From Patescibacteria group bacterium (GTDB lineage: Bacteria; Patescibacteriota; Minisyncoccia; UBA6257; 1-14-0-10-40-38), in assembly GCA_038064975.1 (NCBI GenBank), contig JBBTRX010000007.1:59026-123025 (forward strand): 64,000 nucleotides of DNA, read 5' to 3'. Shown here piece by piece: positions 3,052-61,873 of this stretch; position 1 is the stretch's first letter, and every line of letters begins with the position of its first letter. Made by a program: the position numbers and the translations under genes. A model generated the notes under the pieces. The model was not told the origin of the DNA, did no database searches, and worked only from the letters and a program-made list of their open reading frames with translations.

Positions 3052-3303
3052 ATGGATCCCAACCCAACCAAAAAAGGCTCGGTCCACAAACTGCCGACGG
3101 ATTTACGAAAGGCTATTACTTCTTCTTCGGCAGCGCGAACACTATGGGAGGATATTACACCACTTGCACGTAATGAATGGATCTGCTGGGTCATCTCCGG
3201 CAAAAAAGCGGAGACGAGAAATATCCGTATAGAGAAAGCACTTTCAAAGCTTAAAGGCGGAATGCGTAGGCCTTGCTGTTGGGCCGGTTGCCCCCATCGT
3301 TAA
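3052..3303 (+). CDS. YdeI/OmpD-associated family protein
   Basis: LPTDLRKAI...WICWVISGKKAETRNIRIEKALSKL matches the YdeI/OmdA pattern. Confidence 0.55.
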   Translation: MDPNPTKKGSVHKLPTDLRKAITSSSAARTLWEDITPLARNEWICWVISGKKAETRNIRIEKALSKLKGGMRRPCCWAGCPHR

Positions 3304-3343
3304 AAATAGAATTGTTGTATGTAGAAAAAACCGACGCGAATTT

Positions 3344-6300
3344 TTAAGGAATAACGTTGTAAAACGAATGAATGCTGTTTTGTGTTTCTGCGTCTACTAT
3401 GCCGGTTTCGGATAATTTATTTTTCTTTTGGAAACGAATCACTGCCTGGCGCGTCAGATTGCCATAGTACCCGCTCACCGTTCCCTCGGGATAGATAATT
3501 TTATTTTGCGCCAAATACAGTTGAAGGAGCATTACGTCCTCACCGGAGGAACCCACTAGTAATACCCGTGAGAATGGCTTATCGGTAAGTCCTCCCCCTT
3601 TGCACCCTAATGTATTCATATACATTCGTGTTGAAGCGCCAAAAATTCCCGTCCCCCCTCCTGCAGGAATACCAACCGGAATAAGGATTTCTGTCGCATG
3701 CGTATTTTGAAGTTCTTTTAAAGCAGCTGCAGTTAGTGAACCGAAGAACGTTGTCTCCTTACCCGACGATCCTGTACCAGAAGAAGCTATGATGAATCCT
3801 TGTGCATTTAAACATTGTTGGAGAACTTTCACATCGTTTCCTGTATCCCCCGTTCGCAAACTACGTGTAAATGTAAACGAACCTCCGGCACTTTTAGTCG
3901 TCGCATCAATGACGTTTGAATATTCAGAATCTCCCGCACTGTTGTATGCGCGAATGCGAAAGTAGTACTTCGTGTTAGCGGTAAGACTTTTCTCGTTCCA
4001 GAAATAATAATGCGGCGGCAAGTCGCGGATTTGCGCGAAGTTCGTTCCATTAGTACTCATTTCAAGCTTATATCCCGTTTGCCCTTCCGAACCGCCTTTC
4101 CAAAACAAGCGAATCTCGTTTTCTGAAATAGCATAAGCAGTCACGTTACTCGGTGACTCCGAAAGAATTGAGTTTACGGGCGGAGGAAGCAAAGCTGTGT
4201 CGCAATTTTGAGTAGGAGTGAACGCCACTATTTCCGAATACGCTTGCGCTGCGGAATAGAGCACGCGCACGGAATACGATTGCCCGCTTACCAATACGAG
4301 CGGCTGGGTTATCACCGTCGGCACGAAGCCCTGAGGCACAATCGCCACGAGCGTCCCTGCCGGAACAAATTTATACCAAAAGCCATTCACCCAATTTCCA
4401 TCAGTATCAATATCAACATAAAATCCTTGCGCGCCAGAGGATCCGTTTTCTAGCCATGAAACTGTTGCTTCCGTTGCGCTTCCGGAACAGAACGTGGACA
4501 CCGTGGGCGGAGAGAGTGGATCTCCCGGTGGCGGAGGTGGTGGAGGTGGTGGTGACGGAGCGCTATCGTTGTCTAATAGAGTAACTGTCCCCGTATTTGA
4601 AGAACTGGTTGTATACCCAGCGCTTGGCACAATCATTACCGTCACGCTTTCCGTATTCTCAACATTCACATCATTAATCGGAATGACATCAACTAAAACA
4701 GATGATTGATTGGCAGCAATCACAGGTGAAGTAATAATTGTCTGATAGTCCACACCATTCGTTGCTGTTCCACTAATGGAAATGACGATAGGCAGAGCGT
4801 TTGCAGTGCTTCCTGTGCGCGAAATAGTGAATAGTCCGGTATCCGAGCCAGCTTCTGATGCAGTCGCGTCTGTTGTAGAGATAGAAACAGCCGGTAAAGA
4901 AACCGCTGTTTCAAATCCAGAGCGAATGTAATTGTTTACGTTTGCTGCAGTATACGCATCATTCCAATTCCCTTTTGATTGTTGGAGAGCTCCAGTAATA
5001 AACGCGCTGTAAGTCCCCACTCCGCCTATGCTTGCGTTATACGTTGCAACGGAACGCATTGGGTCCAAGTAGGTTTGCTTCAACACTCCTGACGTAGTAT
5101 CTCCCACTTGGTTTTTCCAAAAGCCAAGCGTTTGAAGTGTTTGGTTTATCGTCGTCCACTTTGTAGCGCCACTATCGGGAGTACTAGAATAAAAAGTATT
5201 ATTACTACTATTAAATTCGCTAAAGCCACCAGACTGCTGATGGTCAAGATGGGGAGTAGTTAAAGAAGAATGTTGGAAATTGTTTCCGCTCAGGGAAATA
5301 TTAGTGACTCGCGGAGCTACACCATCAATCTGCAGGCCGCCACCCCATTCATAGATCGTATTATTCTGAAGAGCGAGATTATGAATACCAAAATCCAATT
5401 GACCATTCTCGCCTTTATGCATCCCTTGCATCGCGATGGCAACGGGCTGCGTACCTAGTACGTTGTTTGCGATGATATTATCCGCGATAGTTCCGGAACT
5501 CACGTTTGAGATAACCATTCCCCATCCACGCTTCTCTGAGGAGTTAATATTTTTTCCATCCAGAATAACATTATCTTGAATATCAATCATTACCCCATTT
5601 GCCGCTGGACTATTACCTCCACCTGCAACAAATGCAATACTATTTCGAACAAAAAGATTATTTTCTATCACGCCGCCCGAACGCATTTGTGCGCCATGAG
5701 AAGATCCGTCCGCTATAATGTTTCCGCGCAAGATGACGCCCGAGTTGCCGTTATCAATATAAATATTATGGCTAAAGATATCCGCACCGGCACCCGCAAC
5801 CGTTTCGCTCCAGCCATTGTGATAAAAAACATTTTCTTCCATCAACAAACCCTGCACGTCATATGCATACATTCCCTGTGAGCTTCCGTTCACCGAATGC
5901 ACGGTATAAGAATTCAGGATGACCGAGCGCCTCAATGTATAATTTTGAAGACTTCCGCCAAAACCCTGAAAAACAATGCCGGTACGATATCCTTCAATTT
6001 TGAAGTCTTCAAAAAGAATATTAGAACCAGGTTGCAGGAAAGACACTCCAGCCTCATTACCATTTGCTCCATCATAGGTATCGGCTAAAAAATGTAATCC
6101 CGTAAAAGCGACATTAGTAATAGTAGGCGGAGAGCCGCCTCCGTTATTAGTCCACACTGCCCCTCCAGTACCAGTCTTAAGCAAAGGCCGCACTGAACTC
6201 ACGCCATAGGAAGATATGAGCATTGGCTCTGATGCAGATCTTCCGGACATTTTCCATTGCCCGAGCGATTCATTAAAAACATCTCCTCTTTTCAGTAACA

Positions 6301-6586
6301 GCCCATCAGGATAGCCATGTCGCAACAAGGATTTACCTGCGCTGATTGTCTTTTTTGCCGTTCCTTCGCTTAACCCATCATTTGTATCGCTTCCCGTAGA
6401 TGAGCTCACATACACAACTCTTGTGTCCGCGCTCGGAGAAAATTCTGTCCATCCGGAACCGGACGACGAACCTAATTGAGCGAGAAGCACCTCATTGCCA
6501 TTTGGAAAACTAGAAACGTAAGTACTATAGAGAAAGGCCACGACACCGATTATGGCTACGAATGTTAAATTTTTCCGGTTAACCAT
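3344..6586 (-). CDS. Large secreted/surface protein: parallel beta-helix, Calx-beta-like, poly-Pro linker, FN3, two C-terminal peptidoglycan-binding (PG_binding_1) domains
   Basis: N-terminal TM/signal. Beta-helix repeats (NNIIANNV, NNLFVRN, Gly/Asn ladders). Calx-beta-like LFTISRTGSTANALPIVISISGTATNGVDYQ. PPPPPPPPPG linker. FN3 (YAISENEIRLFWKG...YYFRIRAYNSAGDSEYS). Two PG-binding repeats (DVKVLQQCLNAQGF; DVMLLQLYLAQNKI...LTRQAVIRFQ). Confidence 0.65.
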   Translation of the reverse strand: MVNRKNLTFVAIIGVVAFLYSTYVSSFPNGNEVLLAQLGSSSGSGWTEFSPSADTRVVYVSSSTGSDTNDGLSEGTAKKTISAGKSLLRHGYPDGLLLKRGDVFNESLGQWKMSGRSASEPMLISSYGVSSVRPLLKTGTGGAVWTNNGGGSPPTITNVAFTGLHFLADTYDGANGNEAGVSFLQPGSNILFEDFKIEGYRTGIVFQGFGGSLQNYTLRRSVILNSYTVHSVNGSSQGMYAYDVQGLLMEENVFYHNGWSETVAGAGADIFSHNIYIDNGNSGVILRGNIIADGSSHGAQMRSGGVIENNLFVRNSIAFVAGGGNSPAANGVMIDIQDNVILDGKNINSSEKRGWGMVISNVSSGTIADNIIANNVLGTQPVAIAMQGMHKGENGQLDFGIHNLALQNNTIYEWGGGLQIDGVAPRVTNISLSGNNFQHSSLTTPHLDHQQSGGFSEFNSSNNTFYSSTPDSGATKWTTINQTLQTLGFWKNQVGDTTSGVLKQTYLDPMRSVATYNASIGGVGTYSAFITGALQQSKGNWNDAYTAANVNNYIRSGFETAVSLPAVSISTTDATASEAGSDTGLFTISRTGSTANALPIVISISGTATNGVDYQTIITSPVIAANQSSVLVDVIPINDVNVENTESVTVMIVPSAGYTTSSSNTGTVTLLDNDSAPSPPPPPPPPPGDPLSPPTVSTFCSGSATEATVSWLENGSSGAQGFYVDIDTDGNWVNGFWYKFVPAGTLVAIVPQGFVPTVITQPLVLVSGQSYSVRVLYSAAQAYSEIVAFTPTQNCDTALLPPPVNSILSESPSNVTAYAISENEIRLFWKGGSEGQTGYKLEMSTNGTNFAQIRDLPPHYYFWNEKSLTANTKYYFRIRAYNSAGDSEYSNVIDATTKSAGGSFTFTRSLRTGDTGNDVKVLQQCLNAQGFIIASSGTGSSGKETTFFGSLTAAALKELQNTHATEILIPVGIPAGGGTGIFGASTRMYMNTLGCKGGGLTDKPFSRVLLVGSSGEDVMLLQLYLAQNKIIYPEGTVSGYYGNLTRQAVIRFQKKNKLSETGIVDAETQNSIHSFYNVIP

Positions 6587-6749
6587 AAATAGATGTGAGA
6601 GAATTCGAGGACGCTTGTCGTTTCTACCAGCATAACTCTTATCTATCGCTTTCCATATTTTTAATATGCACAGTTATGAATATTCGTTTCACGTCGGAAA
6701 AATATGTATAATAAAACATATGAGTAACCACACTAATCAAGGAGGAAAT

Positions 6750-6896
6750 ATGGTTTATTGTTTAGGGCTTATCGGCGCTCTCATTTATTTTATCGGTCAA
6801 GCAACAACATTTTGGATGGGAGTTATAGGAGCTTTGAAAGCTTTGGTATGGCCTGCATTTTTTGTGTATTATGCGTTGGATTTCTTATTTAAGTAA
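6750..6896 (+). CDS. Small 2-TM membrane protein (hypothetical)
   Basis: AAGGAGG Shine-Dalgarno at 6739-6745, 5 nt before the ATG. Two hydrophobic helices. Confidence 0.5.
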   Translation: MVYCLGLIGALIYFIGQATTFWMGVIGALKALVWPAFFVYYALDFLFK

Positions 6897-6902
6897 CTCT
6901 CC

Positions 6903-7445
6903 CTATCTCATCTGCTTCTCTTTACTATCCACTACGCTAATTATTGTTGATGGTTTTCCGTTCAGTTCTCCCTTATCAATAATGAATGATACATTTGCGC
7001 CAAAGTATTTTTTTGCTTCTTCAATAGTTTTCGCCGGCGGCTCACCCTCCAGGTTTGCGCTTGGAGCAACGATGGGGCCCGTTTCCCGCAGGAATTCAAT
7101 AAGCCATTTTTGTTTAGGTAAACGGAAAGCGATACTTCCGGTTCCCCTATGCAGATATGAAAAAGATTTGCTCTCGCACGGTACAACGATACTTACCGGT
7201 CCAGGCCAATATTTTTTAAAAATTTCTTTGGTTACTGCATCAGGTTTAATATTGAACTTTTCTATATCACTCTCTGTACTGATTAATACAATGAGAGGCT
7301 TACGCGAATCTCTTTTCTTAAGCTGATAGATCCGTTCAACTGCCGAAGGTGAAAACGCAGAACAAACCAGACCGTAGATCGTGTCGGTCGGGATAACTCC
7401 AATTTCTCCATTTTTAATCAGTTCAACCTCTTTGCTGTATTCCAT
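6903..7445 (-). CDS. tsaC: L-threonylcarbamoyladenylate synthase (YrdC/Sua5 family)
   Basis: GVIPTDTIYGL and SANLEGEPP motifs; about 180 aa YrdC-type length. Confidence 0.8.
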   Translation of the reverse strand: MEYSKEVELIKNGEIGVIPTDTIYGLVCSAFSPSAVERIYQLKKRDSRKPLIVLISTESDIEKFNIKPDAVTKEIFKKYWPGPVSIVVPCESKSFSYLHRGTGSIAFRLPKQKWLIEFLRETGPIVAPSANLEGEPPAKTIEEAKKYFGANVSFIIDKGELNGKPSTIISVVDSKEKQMR

Positions 7446-8114
7446 ATATATAGCGATCCTAGCAAAGCAATCTATGTGGCGTCTACTGGGGAGTTCTAAT
7501 TCCGTAAGTATTTGGTGTTAGAATTTTTTAAGCGGATATGATACTTTCAAATTAGTTCCCCCACCACTGTACAACCAGGAGCATAGCGATGTGCGGAAGA
7601 GACAATGATGTAGTCGAGCGTCGCTGTAGCGTTTGCCATCAAACGTATTATGGAAGTTTGGGACACATAGGTTGTCCCGCTCAAAGGAGGAAAAACCCCC
7701 AACAAGCGGCGGAACAAGAGCAAGGACTATCAGTTCTCGAAATCGATGAAGCCCTCGATAAGGCGGTGAGGAGAGTCACTGGACCACCCCATCATCACTA
7801 GTCTTCTCAGTTTTCTCAATGAGCACCTGGCTGACCATGTGCTCTTTTTTTTATCTTCACAGATTTTTTATCTTTCATTGGTAATCTTTAATTCATGAAA
7901 ACAGTTACCACAATTCTCATTGTTGTAATAGTACTCGGTTTCGGATATTGGCTTTTTAGCCGTTATCTCGTCTCCAAACTAGACGGCAGTGGAGTTCGTA
8001 TTGAACAAATACGGACATATGTTTAGTAACTGCCTTCTCTAGGGAAATATATCAAGAAGATAAAATTCACGGCCGATTCACTCGTTAAGAGCTATACATT
8101 GAAGACCTAGGATC

Positions 8115-8984
8115 ATGAACAGGATCTTCCATCATCGGTTATTCTTCCCCATAGCACTTATCGTGCTTGTTGCTGTTTATTCTCTTGTCGTGTGGGGACC
8201 GGCCTTGGGAGAGCAATCAGATCCGCCATCTTTTCCAGCAAATATTGCGGAAAAGCAGGAAGACGACTCAATCACTATTCCATCTACTCCAAAACCAGTA
8301 CTTTTCCGCTACGTAGAAATTATAGATAGCTGTGGGCCCCATTATAATGGAGCCTGCGTTAATATGCGTTCCGGACCCGGAGAAACCTATCCCGTCGTTA
8401 GCAAACTCCGTACTGGCATGGTGCTGAAAGTTAAAGACAGCGTTACCACAGAAGGAGGTAAGACCTGGTACGAACTTCTACCCGATGATCATGTACGCTA
8501 TCCGGAACGGGTAACGTCAGATTGGTATGTCTCCGCTGAGGTCGTGCGCGTATTTTATGATGACGGAAGTCATACGCTTCAACGAGGAGGAACCGGATCA
8601 ACGATCGTAAAAACTATCGTTATCAATCGTTCTCTTCAAGAGCTCTACGCGTATGAAAATGGAACTTTAGTAATGCAAATACCTATTTCCACCGGAAAGG
8701 AATTTACTCCCACTCCTCGCGGCACATTTACGGTATACAAGATGACACCGAGCCGCTACATGCAGGGCCCATTGCCTGGCATCAGCGATCAGTACTACGA
8801 CTTGCCCGGCGTCCCTTGGAATCTGTACTTTACGAACGGCGGCGCAGCTATTCACGGCGCGTATTGGCACGATAATTTTGGGCAACCTTGGTCACACGGA
8901 TGCGTCAATCTTCCGCTTGACAAAGCGAAAGAACTTTACCTTTGGGCTGAAGCTGGCATGTCCGTGACGGTGAAAGATTCATGA
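8115..8984 (+). CDS. L,D-transpeptidase (YkuD domain) with SH3b-like domain
   Basis: Signal/TM. SH3_3-like block (YNGACVNMRSGPGETYPVVSKLRTGMVLKV). C-terminal HGAYWHDNFGQPWSHGCVNL catalytic His/Cys. Confidence 0.7.
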   Translation: MNRIFHHRLFFPIALIVLVAVYSLVVWGPALGEQSDPPSFPANIAEKQEDDSITIPSTPKPVLFRYVEIIDSCGPHYNGACVNMRSGPGETYPVVSKLRTGMVLKVKDSVTTEGGKTWYELLPDDHVRYPERVTSDWYVSAEVVRVFYDDGSHTLQRGGTGSTIVKTIVINRSLQELYAYENGTLVMQIPISTGKEFTPTPRGTFTVYKMTPSRYMQGPLPGISDQYYDLPGVPWNLYFTNGGAAIHGAYWHDNFGQPWSHGCVNLPLDKAKELYLWAEAGMSVTVKDS

Positions 8985-51417: not shown

Positions 51418-51978
51418 TTACTTAACGGGATACGACGGAGCTTCAAAAACATCAAACTGGCTAAAGGGGAAGATTCTAATTCTTGCGATACCGATAATAT
51501 CTTCACGATCTACAGCTCCCCAATTCCGAGAGTCAAAACTATGGGCACGATTGTCCCCCATAGCAAAATACTGATTTGCGTGAAGCGTAATATCAAAATT
51601 GCCGTTTTCGGAGTCATCGCTGGGCAGATACGGCTCGTTAAGCGTGATCGTTTGATTATCACTTATGATCTGGATTGAACCGTTGCGAGAAACAACGCGC
51701 TCTCCGGGAATGCCAATGATGCGTTTAATAAAAAAGACTTCCTTATCAAGAGGATAGCGAAACACGATTATTTCACCCCGTTTCGGCTCACGAAGATGAT
51801 ACGTTATTTCATCCACTAGCAAATAATTCCCGTTTGAAAAATTGGGCTCCATAGACGCTCCAGATACCAAAAAGGGCTGTACTAAGAACGTTCTAATAAC
51901 AAAGACTGTTATGCTTGCCACAAAAATGACCTCAAGCACCTCCCATGCGGATAGGACAATTTGTTTCAGCTTTTTCAT
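51418..51978 (-). CDS. lepB: Signal peptidase I
   Basis: SGASMEPNF (catalytic Ser), GDNRAHSFDSR box. Confidence 0.85.
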   Translation of the reverse strand: MKKLKQIVLSAWEVLEVIFVASITVFVIRTFLVQPFLVSGASMEPNFSNGNYLLVDEITYHLREPKRGEIIVFRYPLDKEVFFIKRIIGIPGERVVSRNGSIQIISDNQTITLNEPYLPSDDSENGNFDITLHANQYFAMGDNRAHSFDSRNWGAVDREDIIGIARIRIFPFSQFDVFEAPSYPVK

Positions 51979-52042: not shown

Positions 52043-52573
52043 ATGGGAATTAAACTCATAATAAGCATTGGAAATCCGGGAAAAGAGTACGAACGGTCGT
52101 ATCATAACGCGGGCCACATTGCACTCCGCATTTTGAAAGAAAAAGTCGGTTCAACGGTCCCCCTCCTTGCCTCTTCAGAATTTATGAACCGATCTGGGTC
52201 TTTTGTAGGGCGAGAAGCGCGGCAGAAGGGTGTAAAAGCACAACAAATTCTCATCCTCCACGACGATAGCGACCTTCCCCTAGGAACCGCAAAGCTTGAT
52301 TTTAATCGGGGTGCCGGAGGGCATAATGGAGTCGCAGATATTATTGCGACGCTTCAAACCCAAGAATTTTATCGCCTTCGCATCGGAGTACGCAAAAAAA
52401 CATGGTTCTGGTCCAGACGCAAAAAAGCGGGAGAATTTGTTCTAAAACAGATGCCAAAGAAAGACGAGGAGATGTTGCGAGATAGTATTGAATCCAATAT
52501 AGAAAAAATCACTCGTCTTCTTTCGCAGTCAAACTCACCCCAAACGAATACGTTCCATCAGGATTCGCTTTAA
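52043..52573 (+). CDS. pth: Peptidyl-tRNA hydrolase
   Basis: LIISIGNPGKEYERSYHNAGH N-terminal signature. Confidence 0.85.
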   Translation: MGIKLIISIGNPGKEYERSYHNAGHIALRILKEKVGSTVPLLASSEFMNRSGSFVGREARQKGVKAQQILILHDDSDLPLGTAKLDFNRGAGGHNGVADIIATLQTQEFYRLRIGVRKKTWFWSRRKKAGEFVLKQMPKKDEEMLRDSIESNIEKITRLLSQSNSPQTNTFHQDSL

Positions 52574-54017
52574 TATTAGCTAAAGGAAGAAGAACCTCGC
52601 TGAAAATACCGCTTTTCTCCAATCGTTCTTTGAACGCAATAACCTCTGGTTCGCTTTTTGTAAATCCGTTTATGAGTAAATCTTTTCCCTCCACGGAAAC
52701 TCTAATCAAGGCCACTCCCTGACTAAGAGTAAGAATATTATTCAAAGACTCCGAAACAGATACCGCTTCATTATTTGCATTTTCAATTCGCGAAGCAAAA
52801 GAATTAAATTCTTTTGCTTCTGCTTGAAGTCGTACTATTTCAGCTTTATCCGCAGGATTTCCATCTAGTATATTTTTTTTAACATCGTTTAATTTTTGAA
52901 TAATAAAAGCATCCCCAATGCCAAAAAATAATGTGAGGATCGCAAATGTAGCAACAGCAACGCTTCTCCATGCGTGAATAAATGCAATAACACGCGTTTC
53001 TTCATAACGCTCACGGACAGAGTGATCAGCAAGACTAAGGAAGGAATCCTCATTGCGAGGCATAGTGCCTCGCAAAGCAGACCCCAAGAGAGGAAGCCAT
53101 GCATGAGGAATGCCCTGAAACGCTGGGAGTGTAAGGGCTTCTACAGGAACACCAAACGTATCTTTGAGTCCATCAATTATTTTCCCCGTCATCTCATCAG
53201 CGGCAACGAAGAGGGAATCTACGGGTTTACCCCATCTGCTTTGATAGAAATTCAAAACCTTTTGAGCTTCGCTTGCAATGAACGCTTGAAAATCGTTTTG
53301 AGAAAGATCTTTTCCTCCATACTCTTCGCGGAGCGTGAGCCAACTATGGGATTGGCTAAAATAGAGATTTCCCTTTTGAGCAATGAGAAACAGTACCCCT
53401 TCTCCCGAAACATGAATAATACATAATGATTGCCGAGGGTCGTCTTTAGGAAGCCCTTCACTTATTGAGCGAGCAAGAGCAAGACCGGGAAACTCAACTG
53501 CCGTCGCAATAAACCCTGCTTCTTCCGCGGTTTTTGTATATGCATCAACAAATTCTCGTTCTGCGACCGCTCCTAAAAGATCTACTTGTGCGGTTCCTAA
53601 AAATCGCTCACCTATCTTCTGCCAACCGGAATATACGTGAGAGAAATCTGTCGGAGAGAGCATTTGCAGATTCAGTAGCGCCGACTCTTCCATCTTTGAT
53701 TCTTCTAAAAACGGCATGGAGAATGGCTGAGTGTATACAATTTCTTCCGGAAGGAGAAGAATAATATTTTGCATTGCACGTCCGCCTCCAATTTGGCTAC
53801 GGAATTTTTTTAATGCCGCGACAAGCTTAGCAGAATCCTTAACCTTCCCCTTCTCAATAATCCCTGGAGGCAAGCGGAGTGCGGAAGTAGTCGGTTTTTT
53901 AACGCCCGGTTGCATTAAGAGAAACCGAATGCCTGCATCAGAAAAAGCCAATCCTCCGATTTCCGGGGCTGGGTTAATCATTTTTTGTACTCTAGAAAGA
54001 AATAGATTACCTCTCAT
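52509..54017 (-). CDS. Type IV pilus assembly protein, fused PilM-like (actin-fold) and PilN-like (TM plus coiled coil) modules
   Basis: Cytoplasmic actin-like region, single TM around residues 335-360, periplasmic coiled coil. First gene of the pilus operon. Confidence 0.5.
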   Translation of the reverse strand: MRGNLFLSRVQKMINPAPEIGGLAFSDAGIRFLLMQPGVKKPTTSALRLPPGIIEKGKVKDSAKLVAALKKFRSQIGGGRAMQNIILLLPEEIVYTQPFSMPFLEESKMEESALLNLQMLSPTDFSHVYSGWQKIGERFLGTAQVDLLGAVAEREFVDAYTKTAEEAGFIATAVEFPGLALARSISEGLPKDDPRQSLCIIHVSGEGVLFLIAQKGNLYFSQSHSWLTLREEYGGKDLSQNDFQAFIASEAQKVLNFYQSRWGKPVDSLFVAADEMTGKIIDGLKDTFGVPVEALTLPAFQGIPHAWLPLLGSALRGTMPRNEDSFLSLADHSVRERYEETRVIAFIHAWRSVAVATFAILTLFFGIGDAFIIQKLNDVKKNILDGNPADKAEIVRLQAEAKEFNSFASRIENANNEAVSVSESLNNILTLSQGVALIRVSVEGKDLLINGFTKSEPEVIAFKERLEKSGIFSEVLLPLANIKANPDGTYSFGVSLTAKEDE

Positions 54018-54496
54018 AGCGATATTTCATAAATTGCAACCGGCCGAACTTCTCCCGTATGAGGGTCAACATCAAGCGTAGCACGCAAACGACGGCGTTT
54101 TGTAAGCGCTTGCCCATCAGAAACTATTTCTCTTTTACCAACGCTGATAGCGCACGATGGAGATCCATTGCATATTACCGTGTTATTGCATGAGGCATCA
54201 CTATCATCACAAATTTCAATCGTCGCCCCAGAAGGAATAGTATAAGGGTCATCGTCGCTATATTGATTACGAATGACTCGTAATATCGCATCCTGAATAC
54301 CAGACTCTGCATCCGCGTATGCCTGTGCTGAAAGCCGAAAACCATAATTTGTATTATTCGCAATGAATACAATAAACATGCCCACAAGCGCGATATCAAC
54401 AATGATCGCCCCAATAAGAAGGATTGCGCTCAACGACGCAACTCCCTGCTTGTCAGATTTGAGATTTAATATTTGATTTTTGATATTGAAACTCAT
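54014..54496 (-). CDS. Pilus-associated membrane-anchored protein (PilO/minor-pilin-like, hypothetical)
   Basis: Single N-terminal TM. Translationally coupled (4-nt overlaps) to both neighbours. Four Cys in the exodomain. Confidence 0.35.
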   Translation of the reverse strand: MSFNIKNQILNLKSDKQGVASLSAILLIGAIIVDIALVGMFIVFIANNTNYGFRLSAQAYADAESGIQDAILRVIRNQYSDDDPYTIPSGATIEICDDSDASCNNTVICNGSPSCAISVGKREIVSDGQALTKRRRLRATLDVDPHTGEVRPVAIYEISL

Positions 54497-55551
54497 TTAC
54501 TCCAATTAATAATAACATCTTCCACTATAGGACCTGCGGAGGGAGTGCAGGTTGGAATATTACATGGCGTGAAATTAAGCCGATATTTGAAATAACGAAT
54601 ATTAGAATGAGCAATAAGACTGGTTGTTGCATAAGGAGCGATAGCTCCCAAACCAATAGACTGAAAAGCCCATCCAAGCGTAGTACAATTCGGTGGTACA
54701 TCTCCCACATCAGCACAATCCGTTGCTATCTGAGCAGTAATTTGAGCAGGAGCGCTTGGTAATGCTCCGTGCCATACAAATGTATTTAGTTGTGATCCGC
54801 ATAATACGCCCGGCGCAAGATTGGGGCACGTATCAAAAACACTTGATTCTAAAATCGCTGTGGGCAGTGTAGGAGGAATAGGAGACCATGTCGTTTTTAC
54901 TTTATAGTCTACCGTCGCACAAGTATCTATTGGATTAGAACAATTAAAACTAATCCAACCTACAATATCGTTCCATGCCCAGCCACTAAACTCCCCTTCT
55001 GCTGGAGAAGAACTATCAACATTAATAACTACTTGATATGTTGGCGATACCGGACAATTCCACGACAACGTTCCGGGATTCCAAACCGACCCCCCGCTCG
55101 CATTCCCGCAAAAACTAATCCAGCCAATACTATCGTTCCATGCCCAACCTGCAAGATTTGAAATTCCTGTTATTGCATAGTTCGTAAAATCGTTTGAAAC
55201 GAAAAAATTTGATGTCCCACAGATATTTATAGTATTCGGATTTGCATTATCACAATTCAAAGCAATGAATCCAACCGAAGAGCTCGCATATCCACGAAGT
55301 TCAATGTCAGTCACTTCAACATTCGAATTATCTGTATATACAAAATCAATCCATCCAATCACATCATTCCACGCCCAATGATTTGGTTCTGCAATATCGA
55401 TGTTTGGAGTCGTCGGACCGATTCCAGCCATTACTTGTAAAGTAAAAAATCCTGTTATAAAAACAACAGCAAAGAACAAACCTACTATAATATTGATTCG
55501 TAATTTCATGTTATGGCTCAAGAATCTGTACCGCTCCTGGAGTCGTTTCAT
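54493..55551 (-). CDS. Secreted Cys-rich repeat protein with three W-A-W-N-D...GWI.F motifs (candidate pilus tip adhesin)
   Basis: N-terminal TM/signal. Repeats NHWAWNDVIGWIDF, AGWAWNDSIGWISF, SGWAWNDIVGWISF. 19 Cys. Confidence 0.4.
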   Translation of the reverse strand: MKRLQERYRFLSHNMKLRINIIVGLFFAVVFITGFFTLQVMAGIGPTTPNIDIAEPNHWAWNDVIGWIDFVYTDNSNVEVTDIELRGYASSSVGFIALNCDNANPNTINICGTSNFFVSNDFTNYAITGISNLAGWAWNDSIGWISFCGNASGGSVWNPGTLSWNCPVSPTYQVVINVDSSSPAEGEFSGWAWNDIVGWISFNCSNPIDTCATVDYKVKTTWSPIPPTLPTAILESSVFDTCPNLAPGVLCGSQLNTFVWHGALPSAPAQITAQIATDCADVGDVPPNCTTLGWAFQSIGLGAIAPYATTSLIAHSNIRYFKYRLNFTPCNIPTCTPSAGPIVEDVIINWSK

Positions 55552-56206
55552 GATCTATCTCATCCGACTCCGCCATATCATAAACTGAGATAGAGCTCGT
55601 TGCGGAATACGACACACTCACTCCATTCCCCCCACTCCAATCTGTCTGGCGCATCACCACATTATTATGCCTTGTGAGATATTTACTAAACTGCACCTGC
55701 CCTCCATCCGGCCATGAAACAGTTACGATAACGCGCTGTGTTGAAGGATCTTCGTTGAGAGAGTTGAACGTCGTCTCGATATTGTCCTGAGGGTCTCTTG
55801 ATACATTTTGTTTCTGAAAAAAACGCGTATATACAATACCATCGCTACCTGTTACCGATTCTGTCCCTGATCTCCATATAAATGGAGCCGTGGGGGCTGT
55901 TTTCCTCAAATAATAATCCTCATCTTCAGTTAGATTATAAAGACCCTGATTTAAGCCAGTCCCTTCACAAGGAGCGCTTACACAATACCACTTGGTTTGA
56001 GCATAGATCGTAAGACCCTCTAAAAGTTCCTGACCTAGAAATGTCGCGCTTTGGAGATATTTATTTTGCTGGCTAATACGAAGCGTTACGGTAAGCACAA
56101 GCACTGCGGACCCAATAATAATAATGCCAACCGTAATACCAATTAAGATCTCTATTAAAGATTGGCCTTTTCTGCTATTGAGCAAGCGTAATTGTTCCAT
56201 TAGCAC
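55511..56206 (-). CDS. Type IV minor pilin/pseudopilin
   Basis: Prepilin leader ...RKGQSLIEILIGITVG (Gly then Gln-Ser-Leu-Ile-Glu, Glu at +5). Confidence 0.65.
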   Translation of the reverse strand: MLMEQLRLLNSRKGQSLIEILIGITVGIIIIGSAVLVLTVTLRISQQNKYLQSATFLGQELLEGLTIYAQTKWYCVSAPCEGTGLNQGLYNLTEDEDYYLRKTAPTAPFIWRSGTESVTGSDGIVYTRFFQKQNVSRDPQDNIETTFNSLNEDPSTQRVIVTVSWPDGGQVQFSKYLTRHNNVVMRQTDWSGGNGVSVSYSATSSISVYDMAESDEIDHETTPGAVQILEP

Positions 56207-56687
56207 TTATAGTTATAGTTTTTGTTTCCGCTCCGGAAATGATACCAAGCACAACACTCTGGGGAGTACCACCAGGAGAACCTTTTAAGGTAGAAAATGC
56301 TATATCCTGAATACTTCTATCGACTAACCCTACCCAATAAATATCATTCTTTAATTTATATACTTCTCGAACCAGAGCAGCAGGAGCAGCAGATCCAGGA
56401 GGAGGATATATAGTGCTCGTAAGCGTAGAGCTTGAGGCATATACAAGCTTCATTATGTCGCCAGTTACGAGTTTCTCAAGACGCACACCCCACATACTAC
56501 CGTTTTCTTGAGTGATAGAACGTTGCTGTGCGTCACGGAGAAACGACTCAACTCGTTTTGCATCAGAATCAAGATTCTGAACTACTCTCTGACGAATTAC
56601 ACCGAATGTGGTAAATCCAAAAATAACACTACCAATTGCAATCGTTATCATAAGTTCTATGAGCGTAAATCCTCGGTTATTCTTCAT
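56175..56687 (-). CDS. Type IV pilin-like protein
   Basis: MKNNRGFTLIELMITIAIG: canonical class III signal / N-methylation motif. Confidence 0.75.
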   Translation of the reverse strand: MKNNRGFTLIELMITIAIGSVIFGFTTFGVIRQRVVQNLDSDAKRVESFLRDAQQRSITQENGSMWGVRLEKLVTGDIMKLVYASSSTLTSTIYPPPGSAAPAALVREVYKLKNDIYWVGLVDRSIQDIAFSTLKGSPGGTPQSVVLGIISGAETKTITISANGTITLAQ

Positions 56688-56816: not shown

Positions 56817-58013
56817 TTAGAACTGCCCTACAAGCTGATAAATAGGGACGATAATAGAGAGCGCGATCATCGCAACGACAAGACCGATAACTATAAGAAG
56901 TGCTGGCTCAATAAAAGCCACGAGAGTCTTCACTGATTCGTCAATTTCTTTTTCATAGAAATCGCTCAACGTTTGCAAAATATCATCAAGATGCCCCGCT
57001 TTCTCTGAAATGGCGATGAGGTTAGTCACAATAAGTGGGAGTGTCGTTTCTTTCTTAAACGCCTCTCCCAGAGTAATACCACGAGATACTCCTTCGCGAG
57101 CAACGCGCTGGAGGGACTTCTCTAACCGATCATCGCCCACTGCACTCGCCGTTGTTTCTAGCGCCTCAAGAATGGGGAGTCCTGATTTCAAGAGCGCAGA
57201 AAGTGTGCCTGCAAATCGCTGAAGAGCCAGCTTTTGAGTAACATTTTTAACAAGAGGGGTTTTACGCAGAAACATTCGAAAAACCCGTTTCCCTGTATTT
57301 GTTCTAAAAAAGAAAAATCCGATAGTGATCAACGCCACGCCAGATCCTAGAAAAATCCAAACATATTTCCCAACAAAAAGACCGACTCCAAAAACGATGC
57401 GCGAGAAGATAGGCGGTTCTACACCCCCACCAGAAAAGACATCCGCAATTTTTGGCAACGCAAATGTAACTAAAAAAGTAAGAATGCCGATTGCCATAAC
57501 AACAAGTATGACGGGGTAAATAAAAGCGGCTTTCAGTTTACCCTGCAACTCACCCTCTTTTTCCAGAGATTTATTTAAATCATCCAGAGTTCTATCAAGA
57601 CCGCCGGAGGATTCTCCCGCCTTCAAGAGACTTACGAATACCGGAGAGAAATACTGCGGATATTGTGCGAAGGTTGCATGGAACGGTTTTCCCCGTTCAA
57701 GACCGCTCCTGATTTCAAGCAAGAGATTTTTAACTCCGGGCTTATTAAAATCTTCAATCAAAATATCAATTGCTTTAAAAAGATCAGTACCTACTCGCAA
57801 CATCAATCCAAGATACTTAGTAAGAAATATTTTGTCCGTGAGAGTTATTTTTCCACCACTCTTCTTGTTACCTATCGCCTCAAACGTATGAACCGAAATA
57901 GGACGAAGACCTTTACTCCCTAGAAATTGAAGCACCTGACTTTGATTGTCGGCGTCAATACTTCCTTCCACTATTTTTCCGTCCGGTTGATATGCACTGT
58001 AGCGAAATCGCAT
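56817..58013 (-). CDS. pilC: Type IV pilus platform protein PilC (GspF family)
   Basis: Two T2SSF repeats, three TM helices; about 400 aa. Confidence 0.8.
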   Translation of the reverse strand: MRFRYSAYQPDGKIVEGSIDADNQSQVLQFLGSKGLRPISVHTFEAIGNKKSGGKITLTDKIFLTKYLGLMLRVGTDLFKAIDILIEDFNKPGVKNLLLEIRSGLERGKPFHATFAQYPQYFSPVFVSLLKAGESSGGLDRTLDDLNKSLEKEGELQGKLKAAFIYPVILVVMAIGILTFLVTFALPKIADVFSGGGVEPPIFSRIVFGVGLFVGKYVWIFLGSGVALITIGFFFFRTNTGKRVFRMFLRKTPLVKNVTQKLALQRFAGTLSALLKSGLPILEALETTASAVGDDRLEKSLQRVAREGVSRGITLGEAFKKETTLPLIVTNLIAISEKAGHLDDILQTLSDFYEKEIDESVKTLVAFIEPALLIVIGLVVAMIALSIIVPIYQLVGQF

Positions 58014-58066: not shown

Positions 58067-58429
58067 CTACAGACTCTTTGCTCTTTTTTTTAATCCTCCC
58101 ATCTGCCTTGAGACGCTGTTCAGTTGTTCTACTATTCCAGCAAATTCCTGTTCGGTTATAAGTTTATTATAACGGAAAATATCAACTCCAGCTAATGTTT
58201 CATAGAGAGACCCTTGAGCTATATCAATAAAACGACAAAATTCTTTATGTGAGCTTCTACCGCTTCCTTCGGCAATATTTAATGTTATGGAAAAAGCAGA
58301 TCTAATTAGTTGATTGCCAAGTATAAAACGATATTCTTGGGGCAATTCTTTTACTATTCGCAATATTACAAGAGATAATTCTCGCGATTCTTGATATACC
58401 GGCCATTTAAGAAAGCCGAACTTCTCCAT
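58067..58429 (-). CDS. Four-helix-bundle protein (TIGR02436, '23S rRNA intervening-sequence protein' family)
   Basis: LGNQLIRSAFSITLNIAEGSGRSSHKEFCRFIDIAQGSLYETL matches the family core (NIAEG.GR.S..EF..F..IA.GSL.E). Confidence 0.75.
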   Translation of the reverse strand: MEKFGFLKWPVYQESRELSLVILRIVKELPQEYRFILGNQLIRSAFSITLNIAEGSGRSSHKEFCRFIDIAQGSLYETLAGVDIFRYNKLITEQEFAGIVEQLNSVSRQMGGLKKRAKSL

Positions 58430-58464: not shown

Positions 58465-60183
58465 CTATTCTCGAATAACTCGAAGCACTTCTTCCAGAGT
58501 CGTCATGCCGCGCTCTGCTTTTTTTAGTCCGTCTTCAAACATTGAAATATATCCTGATGCTCGGGCAATTTCTTTCATCTTATCAAGGGTAAATTGCGTT
58601 CCAACGATGTATTTACGCACATCTTCAGTAACATTCAGAATTTCATGAATACCCATACGGCCGCGGTATCCGGAATGATTACATGAATTACATCCTTGCC
58701 CTCTAAACATTGTTTTTGGAATGATATAGGACACATCAAGCTTTAATTCCTTTAACTGCCTCTTTAATGATTCTTCAATATCGGGCGATATTTTATAGGA
58801 CGTAATGCACGACATGCAAATTCTGCGTACAAGACGCTGTGCCATGATCATATTCAAAACTGCCGCAACCAAAAACGGAGCGATGTGTAAGTCAATTAAA
58901 CGCGGGATGGTCGTCGGAGCGTCGTTTGTGTGGAGCGTTGAAAGCACTAAGTGTCCGGTAAGCGCCGAGTGTACGGAGATTTCTGCTGTTTCTTCATCTC
59001 TAATTTCTCCCACCATGATGACGTTTGGATCTTGGCGAAGAATTGCGCGAAGTCCATTAGCAAAAGTAATACCTGCTTGCACATTAACTTGAGTCTGATT
59101 TACATATTTCATGTAATATTCAACCGGGTCTTCAACAGTAACAATATTTACCTCAGGTCGGTTCAGTGCATTTAAAATAGAATAAAGCGTAGTCGTTTTT
59201 CCTGAGCCTGTCGGGCCGGTTACCAAAATCATGCCGAAGGTTTTTTTCGCATTGTCTCGAATGAGTGCAATATTTTCTTGCGAAATACCAAGCTCTTCAA
59301 AAGACATTGGGCGTTCGCTTGCCGATAGCAAGCGCATTTCTACCTTTTCCCCATAAAATGTCGGCATTACAGAAACACGAAGGTCGATCATGTCGTGTCC
59401 CACCCGATGGCGAAACCGGCCGTCCTGCGGCTTATAGTGTTCGTCTAATTTCATTCCAGAGAGTAATTTAAAACGTGCTGCGATAGCCGCGTGCACTTCC
59501 CGGGGCATGCGCATGACTTCACGCAAGATGCCGTCAATACGAAAACGAACAAGAATATCGTTTTCTAAAACCTCCAAATGCACGTCAGAGGCTCGAACCG
59601 CCATGGCGTATGAAACCAGATTGTCTGTAAGCTGAACAACAGGAAGGTCGGTAGCCGCTTCTTGTGCCTCCTTCTCACCAATACGCGCGCGCATTGATGC
59701 CTGAATGTTATCGTCAATTGTTTTTCTAAAATTCTCTGTAATCGTTTCCGCGTAAAATGTCAGTCCTCGGTTAAAATCGTCTTGTGTAGCAAGAAATGGT
59801 TTTATTTTTGATTTGAAGCGATTCGTTAAAAATTCAATCGCCACCAAATCATTCGGATCCAGCATCGCGACTTGAAGCGCACCATCCTGTTCCCTTCCGA
59901 AAAGAATTATTCCTTTTTGGCGAGCAACATCTTCAGGGAGTAATTTTAAAACATTATCATCAATTTTCCTTCCTTTTTCAAAGTTTGCAAGTTCAATACC
60001 ATAAAACCGAGCCGCAATGCCATAGTAATACTCTTCGGTAATTGCGTTCTGTTCCAAGAGAATAGAAGCAACTCCACGATTCATACGGCGAGAATCTTGT
60101 AATGCAACCTGAAATTTCTCTTCCGTAACAAGATTGTCTTGTAAAAGCAGTTTTTTAAATTCTTGTTCAGGAATCTGTAACAT
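58465..60183 (-). CDS. pilB: Type IV pilus assembly ATPase PilB (GspE family)
   Basis: N-terminal GSPII_E_N domain. Walker A GPTGSGKTTTLYS. Asp box, Walker B. Tetracysteine CMSC...CNSC. Confidence 0.9.
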   Translation of the reverse strand: MLQIPEQEFKKLLLQDNLVTEEKFQVALQDSRRMNRGVASILLEQNAITEEYYYGIAARFYGIELANFEKGRKIDDNVLKLLPEDVARQKGIILFGREQDGALQVAMLDPNDLVAIEFLTNRFKSKIKPFLATQDDFNRGLTFYAETITENFRKTIDDNIQASMRARIGEKEAQEAATDLPVVQLTDNLVSYAMAVRASDVHLEVLENDILVRFRIDGILREVMRMPREVHAAIAARFKLLSGMKLDEHYKPQDGRFRHRVGHDMIDLRVSVMPTFYGEKVEMRLLSASERPMSFEELGISQENIALIRDNAKKTFGMILVTGPTGSGKTTTLYSILNALNRPEVNIVTVEDPVEYYMKYVNQTQVNVQAGITFANGLRAILRQDPNVIMVGEIRDEETAEISVHSALTGHLVLSTLHTNDAPTTIPRLIDLHIAPFLVAAVLNMIMAQRLVRRICMSCITSYKISPDIEESLKRQLKELKLDVSYIIPKTMFRGQGCNSCNHSGYRGRMGIHEILNVTEDVRKYIVGTQFTLDKMKEIARASGYISMFEDGLKKAERGMTTLEEVLRVIRE

Positions 60184-60207: not shown

Positions 60208-60576
60208 TCAAATCTTCCCTTTCCCTCTCATAGTTATGATACTTGATGCTAAAATTTTTGCTATCTCTACGGTTTCCTTTAATAATTCTTCCGACTCCTT
60301 ATTATCGCATTTTTGAGCGTCTTTTATAAGATGAATCCAGAATTCTGACTCATTAGCTGATTTTAAAGCATGATTATAAAAATTGATGTAATCTTTCTTA
60401 GAACTGGCTGACTTAGCTTCAAAAATATTCGCCGCCACTGAAGTACCACTACGCAATAATTGATTAGTGAGTACTCCTGATGAGGAATCTTTTCTTATTT
60501 TTTCAACGAATATAACGATATTGAGAGCATATGTATACAATCTTTTATAAAAATCATCTTTACTAAATTCTGACAT
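60208..60576 (-). CDS. Four-helix-bundle protein (TIGR02436 family), second copy
   Basis: LTNQLLRSGTSVAANIFEAKSASSKKDYINFYNHALKSANESEFWI has the same family core. Divergent paralog of 58067..58429. Confidence 0.7.
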   Translation of the reverse strand: MSEFSKDDFYKRLYTYALNIVIFVEKIRKDSSSGVLTNQLLRSGTSVAANIFEAKSASSKKDYINFYNHALKSANESEFWIHLIKDAQKCDNKESEELLKETVEIAKILASSIITMRGKGKI

Positions 60577-60634: not shown

Positions 60635-61234
60635 TTAGAACCTAAAACTCGCCCACCATCCTTGATTGCCCGCCCATAAAGCAACTAAAAGAGTAGTGAT
60701 TATCGCAGAAGGCATCCAGAAGTAGTAGAGCGGTAATCGTTCGTTCTTTTTTACAAGAAGCGCAGAACTAATAGCGGCAAGGAGAAGAACTAAAACTATA
60801 TAGAAAAGAAAAGCAGGATATCCGGTTATGAGAATACCAAGCGCAATAATATAAAGCTCGTCGTGTTCAAAATGGACTTGTCCGCGCTTTTTATCTAAAT
60901 ACGCCGAAACCCAAAAGAGAAGCAATGCAACGATGAATGAGACGAGGTACGTATTCCAAAAATGGAATCGGGCGTAGCTGAAAAAGTACTTCAAACCATC
61001 CACCGTACCGATCGTATATGAGAGTGGACCGCTTTGAAATGCCTGATATTGGAAATAAGATAGTATTCCTGCATAGCTAAAAAGAAGTAGAGCAGTTAAC
61101 CAAAAAATTGGTTTAATAGTTTTAAGTAAAAGCTCACGTTTTTGAAACTGTAAGAAAAAAACAATGCTCGGTATTACAATAGTGGAAACAGGAATAATAT
61201 AAGGCATCACATTCATATAGTTAAATAATATCAC
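60635..61234 (-). CDS. Polytopic membrane protein in the pilus operon (function unknown)
   Basis: Six or seven TM helices. No recognisable A24 prepilin-peptidase Asp motifs. Confidence 0.35.
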   Translation of the reverse strand: MILFNYMNVMPYIIPVSTIVIPSIVFFLQFQKRELLLKTIKPIFWLTALLLFSYAGILSYFQYQAFQSGPLSYTIGTVDGLKYFFSYARFHFWNTYLVSFIVALLLFWVSAYLDKKRGQVHFEHDELYIIALGILITGYPAFLFYIVLVLLLAAISSALLVKKNERLPLYYFWMPSAIITTLLVALWAGNQGWWASFRF

Positions 61235-61303: not shown

Positions 61304-61873
61304 TTAGAGATTTAAACCTGGATCGGTTCCAATTTCATACCAGCAGGTTGCATCAACGAATGTACCAGTGCAAGTATTGTCATCTCCTCCATCGTTTTGC
61401 ATTAAGGCACGGTGTTTTTCAGATTCAAGACGAGCATTCAATTCAAACGTTTTTGCCGAATTATTACCAGCATAGGCAAAGTAATAGTTACCAGTATTTG
61501 TTGGATCAATAGGAAGTGTGGAAAGAGTAGATCCTCCAGATGTTCCGTTAAGATCTACAGCAAGCCATCCTGATCCACCAACCGTTCGTAAAACGTTAGC
61601 TAGTGGTGTTGTGCATGCACCGCCGCTAAATCCACTCACAATACCCAGGGTACAAAAAGGACCTGGTGTAAAAGTAACTGTTGTTGAAGCAGTTGCGAGT
61701 AAAAGCCCAACCGCTGACTGCACCGAACCTAAATCAGAGATTCTTTGCGTATCTCGAGATTCTTGCAAAATTTGCGCTGGGTTCAAAACCAAAACGACAG
61801 TTGTCGCGAGAATTGCAAGAATACCAATAACGATAAGAAGCTCAATAAGAGTAAAACCTTTCTTTGCTATCAT
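61304..61873 (-). CDS. Type IV major pilin (PilA-like)
   Basis: MIAKKGFTLIELLIVIGILAILA prepilin motif. Gly/Thr-rich globular domain with two Cys pairs. Confidence 0.8.
   Translation of the reverse strand: MIAKKGFTLIELLIVIGILAILATTVVLVLNPAQILQESRDTQRISDLGSVQSAVGLLLATASTTVTFTPGPFCTLGIVSGFSGGACTTPLANVLRTVGGSGWLAVDLNGTSGGSTLSTLPIDPTNTGNYYFAYAGNNSAKTFELNARLESEKHRALMQNDGGDDNTCTGTFVDATCWYEIGTDPGLNL

Follow-up and report, generated by a model that had tools for sequence, protein, structure and literature searches.

Tryptophan-Hairpin Proteins in the Pilus Operons of Patescibacteria: Candidate Subunits of the Type IV Pilus Tip

Introduction

Nearly all Patescibacteria have type IV pili, which are thought to drive host-cell attachment. 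Outside Saccharibacteria, we know of no pilus proteins identified as making that contact. A 64-kb stretch of DNA from a Patescibacteria group bacterium (GenBank assembly GCA_038064975.1, contig JBBTRX010000007.1, positions 59,026 to 123,025; hereafter the window) has a complete type IV pilus operon in which one gene, 54493..55551, encodes a secreted protein with three near-identical WAWNDxxGWIxF motifs. We refer to this gene and its product as the W gene and the W protein; all window features described here lie on the minus strand. What does such a protein do among the minor pilin genes of a pilus operon? Its family, domain layout, operon slot and fusions are matters of observation, and from these we consider it reasonably likely that the W protein, exported via Sec, is a non-pilin component of the type IV pilus tip and the partner of a PilV-like pilin in Patescibacteria of the Paceibacteria/Parcubacteria type.

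A Fixed Slot in the Pilus Operon

In the window, the genes follow the order PilB, PilC, GspH-like pilin, PilV-like pilin, W gene, PilX-like gene and PilMN, and the same order recurs in loci located via individual homologues. Synteny was followed by tblastn of the window proteins against 80 species-level loci, each count being taken over the loci with sufficient flank on the relevant side. The PilV-like gene lies directly upstream of the W gene and on the same strand in 63/71 loci, PilC and PilB are found upstream in 54/59 and 41/49 loci, respectively, and PilMN is found downstream in 51/60 loci. The 160-aa PilX-like gene is likewise conserved 3′ of the W gene. One locus (L006) is uninformative, its genes being fragmented.

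The packing of these genes is tight. Read from its first ATG (55551), the W open reading frame (ORF) overlaps the upstream PilV-like gene by 41 nt, while from a second possible start (55509, M15) it begins 1 nt past the stop of that gene; at its other end it shares 4 nt with the downstream gene. A reading of this DNA made from the sequence only (the sequence-only reading) had coupled the W gene to pilin-like genes and suggested that its product is pilus-associated. The coupling is borne out by this overlap or abutment and by the synteny kept across the 80 loci, and the association also by frequent fusion to the adjacent minor pilin.

Fusions to the PilV-Like Pilin

A prepilin signal stands at the start of 31/125 representative clusters of the family (25%; exhaustive search). 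What precedes the W protein in such relatives? In 15 fused proteins compared by BLASTP, the N-terminal half matches the PilV-like protein of the window (55511..56206; 231 aa, class III signal G↓QSLIE), with E values of 1e-13 to 1e-32, and the remainder aligns with the W protein all the way to its end, starting at about residue 20-58 and so leaving out the signal peptide. The two halves are joined by a short Gly/Ser/Thr-rich linker. P0123, P0126, P0137, P0138, P0141, P0163 and others are thus a PilV-like pilin followed by a mature W protein. The hallmark of a modular pilin, a non-pilin domain grafted C-terminally on a pilin, is found in these homologues and not in the window gene. The strongest evidence lies in the constancy of the slot and in fusions that recur with a single minor pilin; both indicate that the W protein works in the pilus together with the PilV-like subunit, and its pilus association is well supported.

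The PilV-like pilin itself carries a conserved QTDWSGG motif near its C-terminus, followed by a Ser/Thr-rich tail (C-terminal part of 55511..56206 in the window; 7310..7981 in L001). In fused relatives the linker to the W module follows immediately after this region, which may contact the W protein.

Gene, Export Signal and Tryptophan Motifs

From the first ATG, the ORF (stop codon 54493-54495) encodes 352 aa. The alternative start gives a 338-aa form identical to P0001, a protein from a metagenome-assembled genome (MAG) in NCBI (‘Patescibacteria group bacterium’), for which ATG 55509 is used. Residues 1-42 (55426..55551) comprise a hydrophobic helix and a predicted signal-peptidase-I site, ...LQVMA↓GIG, for which the family consensus is AxA↓ATNI. 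In the structural model the predicted cleavage site, just after the helix, coincides with the only stretch in which the predicted local distance difference test (pLDDT) falls below 50. No match to N_methyl (PF07963) or TIGR02532 was found in Pfam and NCBIfam scans at E up to 1, and the N-terminus, MKLRINIIVGLFFAVVFITGFFTLQVMA↓G, has no G-x-x-x-x-E; a class III prepilin signal occurs only in the pilin-fused relatives. The N-terminal anchor or signal previously proposed for this protein is real as a hydrophobic segment, and it looks like a cleavable Sec-type signal peptide, not a pilin-type signal. A degenerate PilW-type pilin, as suggested by the operon slot, is disfavoured by the family-wide AxA signal-peptidase-I site and by the fusions, which drop this N-terminus.

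The three motifs, of the form xWAWNDxxGWIxF, are HWAWNDVIGWIDF (55342..55380, residues 58-70), GWAWNDSIGWISF (55111..55149, residues 135-147) and GWAWNDIVGWISF (54946..54984, residues 190-202). No others occur in any frame of the window. When the W protein was shuffled, 0/200 shuffles gave even one extra 13-mer copy at ≥9/13 identity, compared with the two extra copies observed. Each motif's central Trp and GW are invariant in 70 aligned homologues. The ORF and its three motifs are therefore as the sequence-only reading described them; its count of 19 cysteines and its spacing of roughly 55-65 residues need correction, since the protein has 12 Cys (and 15 Trp) and the motifs are 77 and 55 residues apart. 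Between motifs 1 and 2 lies a degenerate fourth copy, GYASSSVGFIALNC (55252..55293, residues 87-100), which is conserved in the family and predicted to form a beta-hairpin like the others. The repeated region thus appears to consist of four units.

Domain Layout and Predicted Structure

The structural statements that follow rest on predicted models. AlphaFold2, run with a 70-sequence alignment, gave a mean pLDDT of 85.8 and a predicted template modelling score (pTM) of 0.72 for the 338-aa form, and a pLDDT of 91.0 and pTM of 0.88 for the hairpin module alone (residues 44-224). Both models are essentially all-beta, the signal-peptide helix aside. The Trp-hairpin module (54880..55404, residues 50-224) contains four units in which a hairpin leads via a variable loop to a return strand, with 11-13 predicted strands in total. 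Its topology would be either an 8-stranded barrel with excursions or a 12-strand meander. The loops of units 2-4 are each closed by a Cys pair, C100-C111, C148-C166 and C204-C211, conserved in 96-100%, 73-79% and 97-99% of the family, respectively; the loop of unit 1 has none. The remaining six Cys form three close pairs in the C-terminal domain and are mostly particular to the W protein sequence. The mature protein (~310 aa) is acidic, with an isoelectric point (pI) of 4.05 and 7 Lys+Arg vs 24 Asp+Glu; the family has a median pI of 4.5 and a maximum of 5.1.

The C-terminal domain (54496..54879, residues 225-352) is modelled as a jelly-roll-like beta-sandwich and ends in RYF.Y...P.V.DVIINWS(P/K). 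Nearly all family members end in this domain, with the signature RYFRYK...SPRVDDVIINWSP. The model resembles the jelly-rolls of CBM32, discoidin, the Eph ligand-binding domain (LBD) and PirA, at 7-12% identity. Small beta-barrels, some of them OmpA-like, resemble the hairpin module over ~100/181 residues at 4-14% identity, a likeness of topology that is no evidence of homology. Foldseek against the PDB gave no match with E ≤1e-3.

An unrelated 441-aa secreted protein encoded in locus L075 (3859..5184, minus strand) ends in ...FFWRARMTPGTTTQRSPVIDRILLEYNVKFL, the same kind of C-terminal signature as the W jelly-roll. The jelly-roll may be a wider C-terminal module of Patescibacteria surface proteins.

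A Widespread and Unannotated Family

How common are these proteins? A word-indexed search gave 781 clusters at 90% identity (E up to 1e-3), and an exhaustive search gave 1433 clusters at 50% identity, 401 of them with E below 1e-10. The family occurs in at least 524 species-representative genomes; counts from genome scans are lower bounds. With taxonomic labels taken from the records, nearly all named records carry Patescibacteria labels (Paceibacterota, Parcubacteria, Wolfe-, Lipton-, Colwell- and Harrisonbacteria, Minisyncoccia), and many MAGs bear the submitter label ‘uncultured Candidatus Saccharibacteria bacterium’. One 8.6-kb contig from a ‘Spirochaetia’ MAG shows the same pilus synteny and is probably mis-binned. 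Members contain 3, 6 or 9 canonical motifs.

Known families do not account for the protein. Pfam and NCBIfam scans gave nothing beyond noise; at E up to 1, no profile matched among CW_binding_1, ChW and similar aromatic cell-wall- or carbohydrate-binding repeats (Pfam, NCBIfam), nor did PF00754 (F5/8 type C) and related models. The PilC/PilY1 beta-propeller domain (IPR008707) was not found in the W protein. A search of PDB sequences with a 70-homologue profile yielded chance matches only (E ≥0.097), and, within the library searched, a full-text search with the motif strings gave no relevant paper. The sequence-only reading had suspected an undescribed repeat family and proposed profile searches that might place the repeat in a known annotated domain. 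The Pfam and NCBIfam scans found no such domain; together with the empty Foldseek, PDB and literature searches, they agree with that suspicion.

Acquired Domains in Larger Relatives

Relatives of the W protein carry a range of additional domains. A Pfam scan of 122 representatives found N_methyl (10), Laminin_G_3 (5) and DUF2341 (3), as well as TIG, F5/8 type C, FN3, InlB B-repeat and a sialidase N-terminal lectin domain. In larger relatives with a Sec signal, DUF2341, FN3, F5/8 type C or other domains lie N-terminal to a constant unit of hairpin module and jelly-roll. The pilin-fused P0203 (1533 aa) departs from this arrangement in having an insert of ~720 aa (DUF2341 and three LamG domains; residues ~624-1340) within the hairpin module itself, shortly past its first disulfide loop, where it separates the parts that match window residues 122 and 129. 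The hairpin module thus tolerates very large insertions at that loop.

The enlarged proteins also occur in pilus operons. P0122 (DUF2341, FN3, W module and jelly-roll) holds the same operon slot as the W gene, and P0070, another enlarged relative, is likewise in a pilus operon. In the P0122 operon (L088), two genes at minor-pilin positions (3118..4644 and 5190..6800; 508 and 536 aa) have Kelch-type beta-propeller repeats, which suggests that some lineages have elaborated their entire tip complex.

Comparison with Known Tip Proteins

The tip adhesin PilY1 is itself no pilin and docks on minor pilins; modular pilins bear grafted modules (PMC8179133, PMC9934059). Like PilY1/PilC of Pseudomonas, Neisseria and Myxococcus, the W protein is a non-pilin with a Sec-type signal encoded among minor pilin genes. 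In both cases a conserved C-terminal unit is joined in relatives by variable extra modules, which are also found grafted on pilins (PMC8179133). PilY1 is presented at the tip via minor pilins (PMC8179133); the pilin link of the W protein comes from the fusions described above. The two differ in structure and size: the W protein has no Pfam match to the PilY1/PilC family, its predicted parts are a Trp-hairpin module and a jelly-roll with no beta-propeller, and it is much smaller (352 aa) and, in relatives, often fused whole to a pilin.

In modular minor pilins, a minor pilin carries a functional module at the tip, as in PilB (vWA) and PilC (ConA-like lectin) of S. sanguinis and PilX1 (jelly-roll) and PilX2 (beta-propeller) of the Saccharibacteria TM7x (PMC8179133, PMC9934059, PMC11623550). 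The fused P0126 and P0137 are built in exactly this way. Lectin-like minor pilins occur in Saccharibacteria; their C-terminal domains are unannotated, and they have no PilD signal (PMC11623550). TM7x PilX1, likened here by description, has an unannotated C-terminal jelly-roll-like domain, and both PilX1 and PilX2 lack a PilD signal (PMC11623550). The window module differs in being encoded by a separate gene with its own Sec-type signal, and its Trp-hairpin module has no counterpart in the modular pilins. The W protein therefore resembles PilY1/PilC and the heads of modular pilins in working principle and belongs to neither family, since it has no prepilin signal, no PilY1 propeller and no profile of a known lectin or cell-wall-binding repeat.

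The resemblances in predicted fold are looser. Against the jelly-rolls of CBM32, discoidin/F5-8 type C, the ephrin-receptor LBD and PirA, the C-terminal domain shows no sequence-profile match, and ligand residues cannot be mapped at such low identity. The 8-stranded barrels compared with the hairpin module (NspA/OmpA/PagL, YceI, hemophilin, TbpB/HpuA/fHbp and designed barrels) cover part of it and have neither repeat nor Trp motif, whereas the W module is acidic, predicted to be disulfide-stabilised and preceded by a Sec-type signal. It does not qualify as an OmpA-like outer-membrane barrel, which is membrane-embedded with a hydrophobic outer surface; to our knowledge, its host has no outer membrane. 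Judged from the model, no solved structure is closer to the hairpin module than generic barrels are.

A Possible Route to the Pilus Tip

How might the W protein reach the tip? Judging from its sequence, the N-terminal signal would be cleaved by signal peptidase I, and folding would take place outside the membrane, where, given the conserved Cys pairs, local disulfides would close the loops after three of the four hairpins. The fusions suggest that the protein then enters the minor-pilin priming complex by binding the PilV-like pilin encoded directly upstream. By analogy with PilY1 and modular pilins, PilB and PilC would polymerise the major pilin below this complex, leaving the W protein at the distal tip; in published models, minor pilins, PilY1 and modular pilins belong to the priming complex that arrives at the filament tip (PMC8179133, PMC9934059). 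The head would contact its target surface, most likely via the jelly-roll together with variable loops located at one end of the module, and the LamG, discoidin and other domains of relatives would be inserted at those loops or upstream of the module. Acquired extracellular binding domains, a C-terminal fold that resembles carbohydrate-binding modules (CBM) and insertion-tolerant variable loops are consistent with a ligand-facing head. A pilus adhesin or tip protein, as suggested by the sequence-only reading, is plausible by analogy and from these domain partners, and adhesion or glycan binding by the W protein is likewise plausible.

Several observations weigh against this scheme. Tip location, docking partner and ligand binding are all things that we infer. 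Three of the 15 fused proteins compared (P0062, P0071 and P0077) end after the hairpin module, without the jelly-roll, which is therefore not indispensable. Conversely, the pilin-fused proteins retain the hairpin module although they have no need of docking, so that service as a carrier or dock cannot be its only role. The family is 40-65% identical across many candidate phyla, unusually conserved for a host-specific adhesin, and a structural or priming role thus fits at least as well as adhesion. Finally, among the 47 loci with long flanks on both sides, two (L073 and L075) have a W gene with no pilus gene nearby; in L075 it lies among genes of other secreted proteins.

Alternative Explanations

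Could the W protein be a purely structural cap or priming factor in the PilW/GspJ slot, required for assembly and binding no external ligand? The slot between the PilV-like and PilX-like genes is where a fourth minor pilin would be expected, and the fixed position, the very high sequence conservation and the presence of the family in so many species genomes all speak for it. The repeated gain of adhesion-type domains by relatives, which suggests an exposed, ligand-facing position, and the predicted jelly-roll/CBM-like C-terminal fold speak against it, and we regard a purely structural role as rather unlikely. The roles of cap and tip adhesin are in any case compatible, PilY1 having both. A different possibility, which had been raised in outline by the sequence-only reading, is that the repeat itself is the adhesin, the three WAWNDxxGWIxF motifs being sugar sites in which exposed Trp stack on pyranose rings. 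The hairpin module is indeed aromatic-rich, repeated and predicted to be extracellular, and lectin-like minor pilins are known in Saccharibacteria and S. sanguinis (PMC11623550, PMC9934059). Yet the motif Trp and Gly are invariant or near-invariant across the family and placed in predicted hairpin strands, which argues for a structural role, so that the motif tryptophans look structural rather than sugar-stacking; the part predicted to have a lectin-like fold is the C-terminal jelly-roll, not the repeat. Binding of carbohydrate through stacked Trp finds no support here, and we consider such a lectin quite unlikely.

Alternatively, the protein may not belong to the filament, being instead an exoprotein secreted via the pilus machinery, in the manner of a type II secretion system substrate, or a part of the envelope that the pilus traverses. 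This would suit the Sec-type signal, the operon position beside machinery genes and the likeness of the hairpin module to small beta-barrels, including OmpA-like ones. However, pilin fusions with an intact class III signal in a quarter of the representative clusters ill fit a free substrate or a static conduit, and the low identity to barrels, the acidity (pI ~4) and the conserved Cys pairs, consistent with disulfides, also count against it; it is a very improbable explanation. Patescibacteria depend on imported nucleotides, which raises the question of a tip-located DNA receptor for natural competence. Type IV pili mediate DNA uptake in many bacteria, and ComZ of Thermus, for which such a role has been proposed, is cited as a tip module with a DNA-binding role (PMC8179133). 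This candidate was rejected on charge, as the W protein and its whole family are acidic; nor does the protein show similarity to DNA-binding pilins, and we find a DNA receptor scarcely credible.

Other Genes of the Operon

Upstream of the minor pilin genes, the operon encodes a candidate major pilin (61304..61873; 189 aa, G↓FTLIE), a 199-aa membrane protein (60635..61234), the PilB extension ATPase (58465..60183; T2SSE and MshEN), the PilC platform protein (56817..58013; T2SSF) and a GspH/FimU-like minor pilin (56175..56687; 170 aa, G↓FTLIE). The downstream genes are those of the protein at the PilX/GspK-like position (54014..54496; 160 aa), with a pilin-like hydrophobic N-terminus lacking Glu5, and of a PilM-PilN fusion (52509..54017; 502 aa, PilM_2 at residues 48-241 and PilN at 431-496). 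This fusion is conserved in related loci at ~484-507 aa. Many related loci keep the 199-aa protein, which is polytopic and has no Pfam match, in its place between the candidate major pilin and PilB. It could be a divergent prepilin peptidase, as no recognisable one was seen in the pilus operon of the window. A gene for signal peptidase I (51418..51978; 186 aa by ORF length), assigned from its syntenic counterpart with Peptidase_S26 in L005, lies ~2.5 kb downstream of the W gene. With L005 the window also shares a neighbourhood of Pth, HisRS, HIT, S21, YqeY, YbeY and FtsA.

Small four-helix-bundle genes (23S_rRNA_IVP or bAvd-like, PF05635) are interspersed between the pilus genes, at 58067..58429 and 60208..60576 in the window and in related loci (L007 854..1165, 5278..5670, 6459..7019 and 7997..8380; L003 9203..9538; L088 9561..9917). 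Together with PDDEXK_3 genes, they occupy varying intergenic positions in related operons, with up to four per operon, and behave like small mobile genes. Gene callers at times merge the bAvd-like genes with pilus proteins (P0062, P0054). Such neighbours raise the idea of a diversity-generating retroelement. It was set aside: the C-terminal end of the W protein is conserved, not hypervariable, and the small genes vary in position.

Implications

We rate the W family as a new, widespread and unannotated domain family in the proposed tip-protein role of Paceibacteria-type pili. Large, locked in the pilus operon and linked by fusion to one minor pilin, it offers a concrete candidate for the tip complex of these pili. 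The W domain could enter the family databases, making thousands of ‘hypothetical proteins’ and modular pilins recognisable, and the insertion-tolerant hairpin module may be a natural display scaffold. More tentatively, it is possible that the hairpin module and jelly-roll represent an unrecognised, class-wide pilus tip subunit of Paceibacteria, an independent counterpart to PilY1, with a beta fold lacking solved relatives, in which a constant head bears the variable host-recognition domains of these episymbionts. If so, the W protein would be a prime candidate for host contact or pilus priming in one of the largest uncultured bacterial groups.

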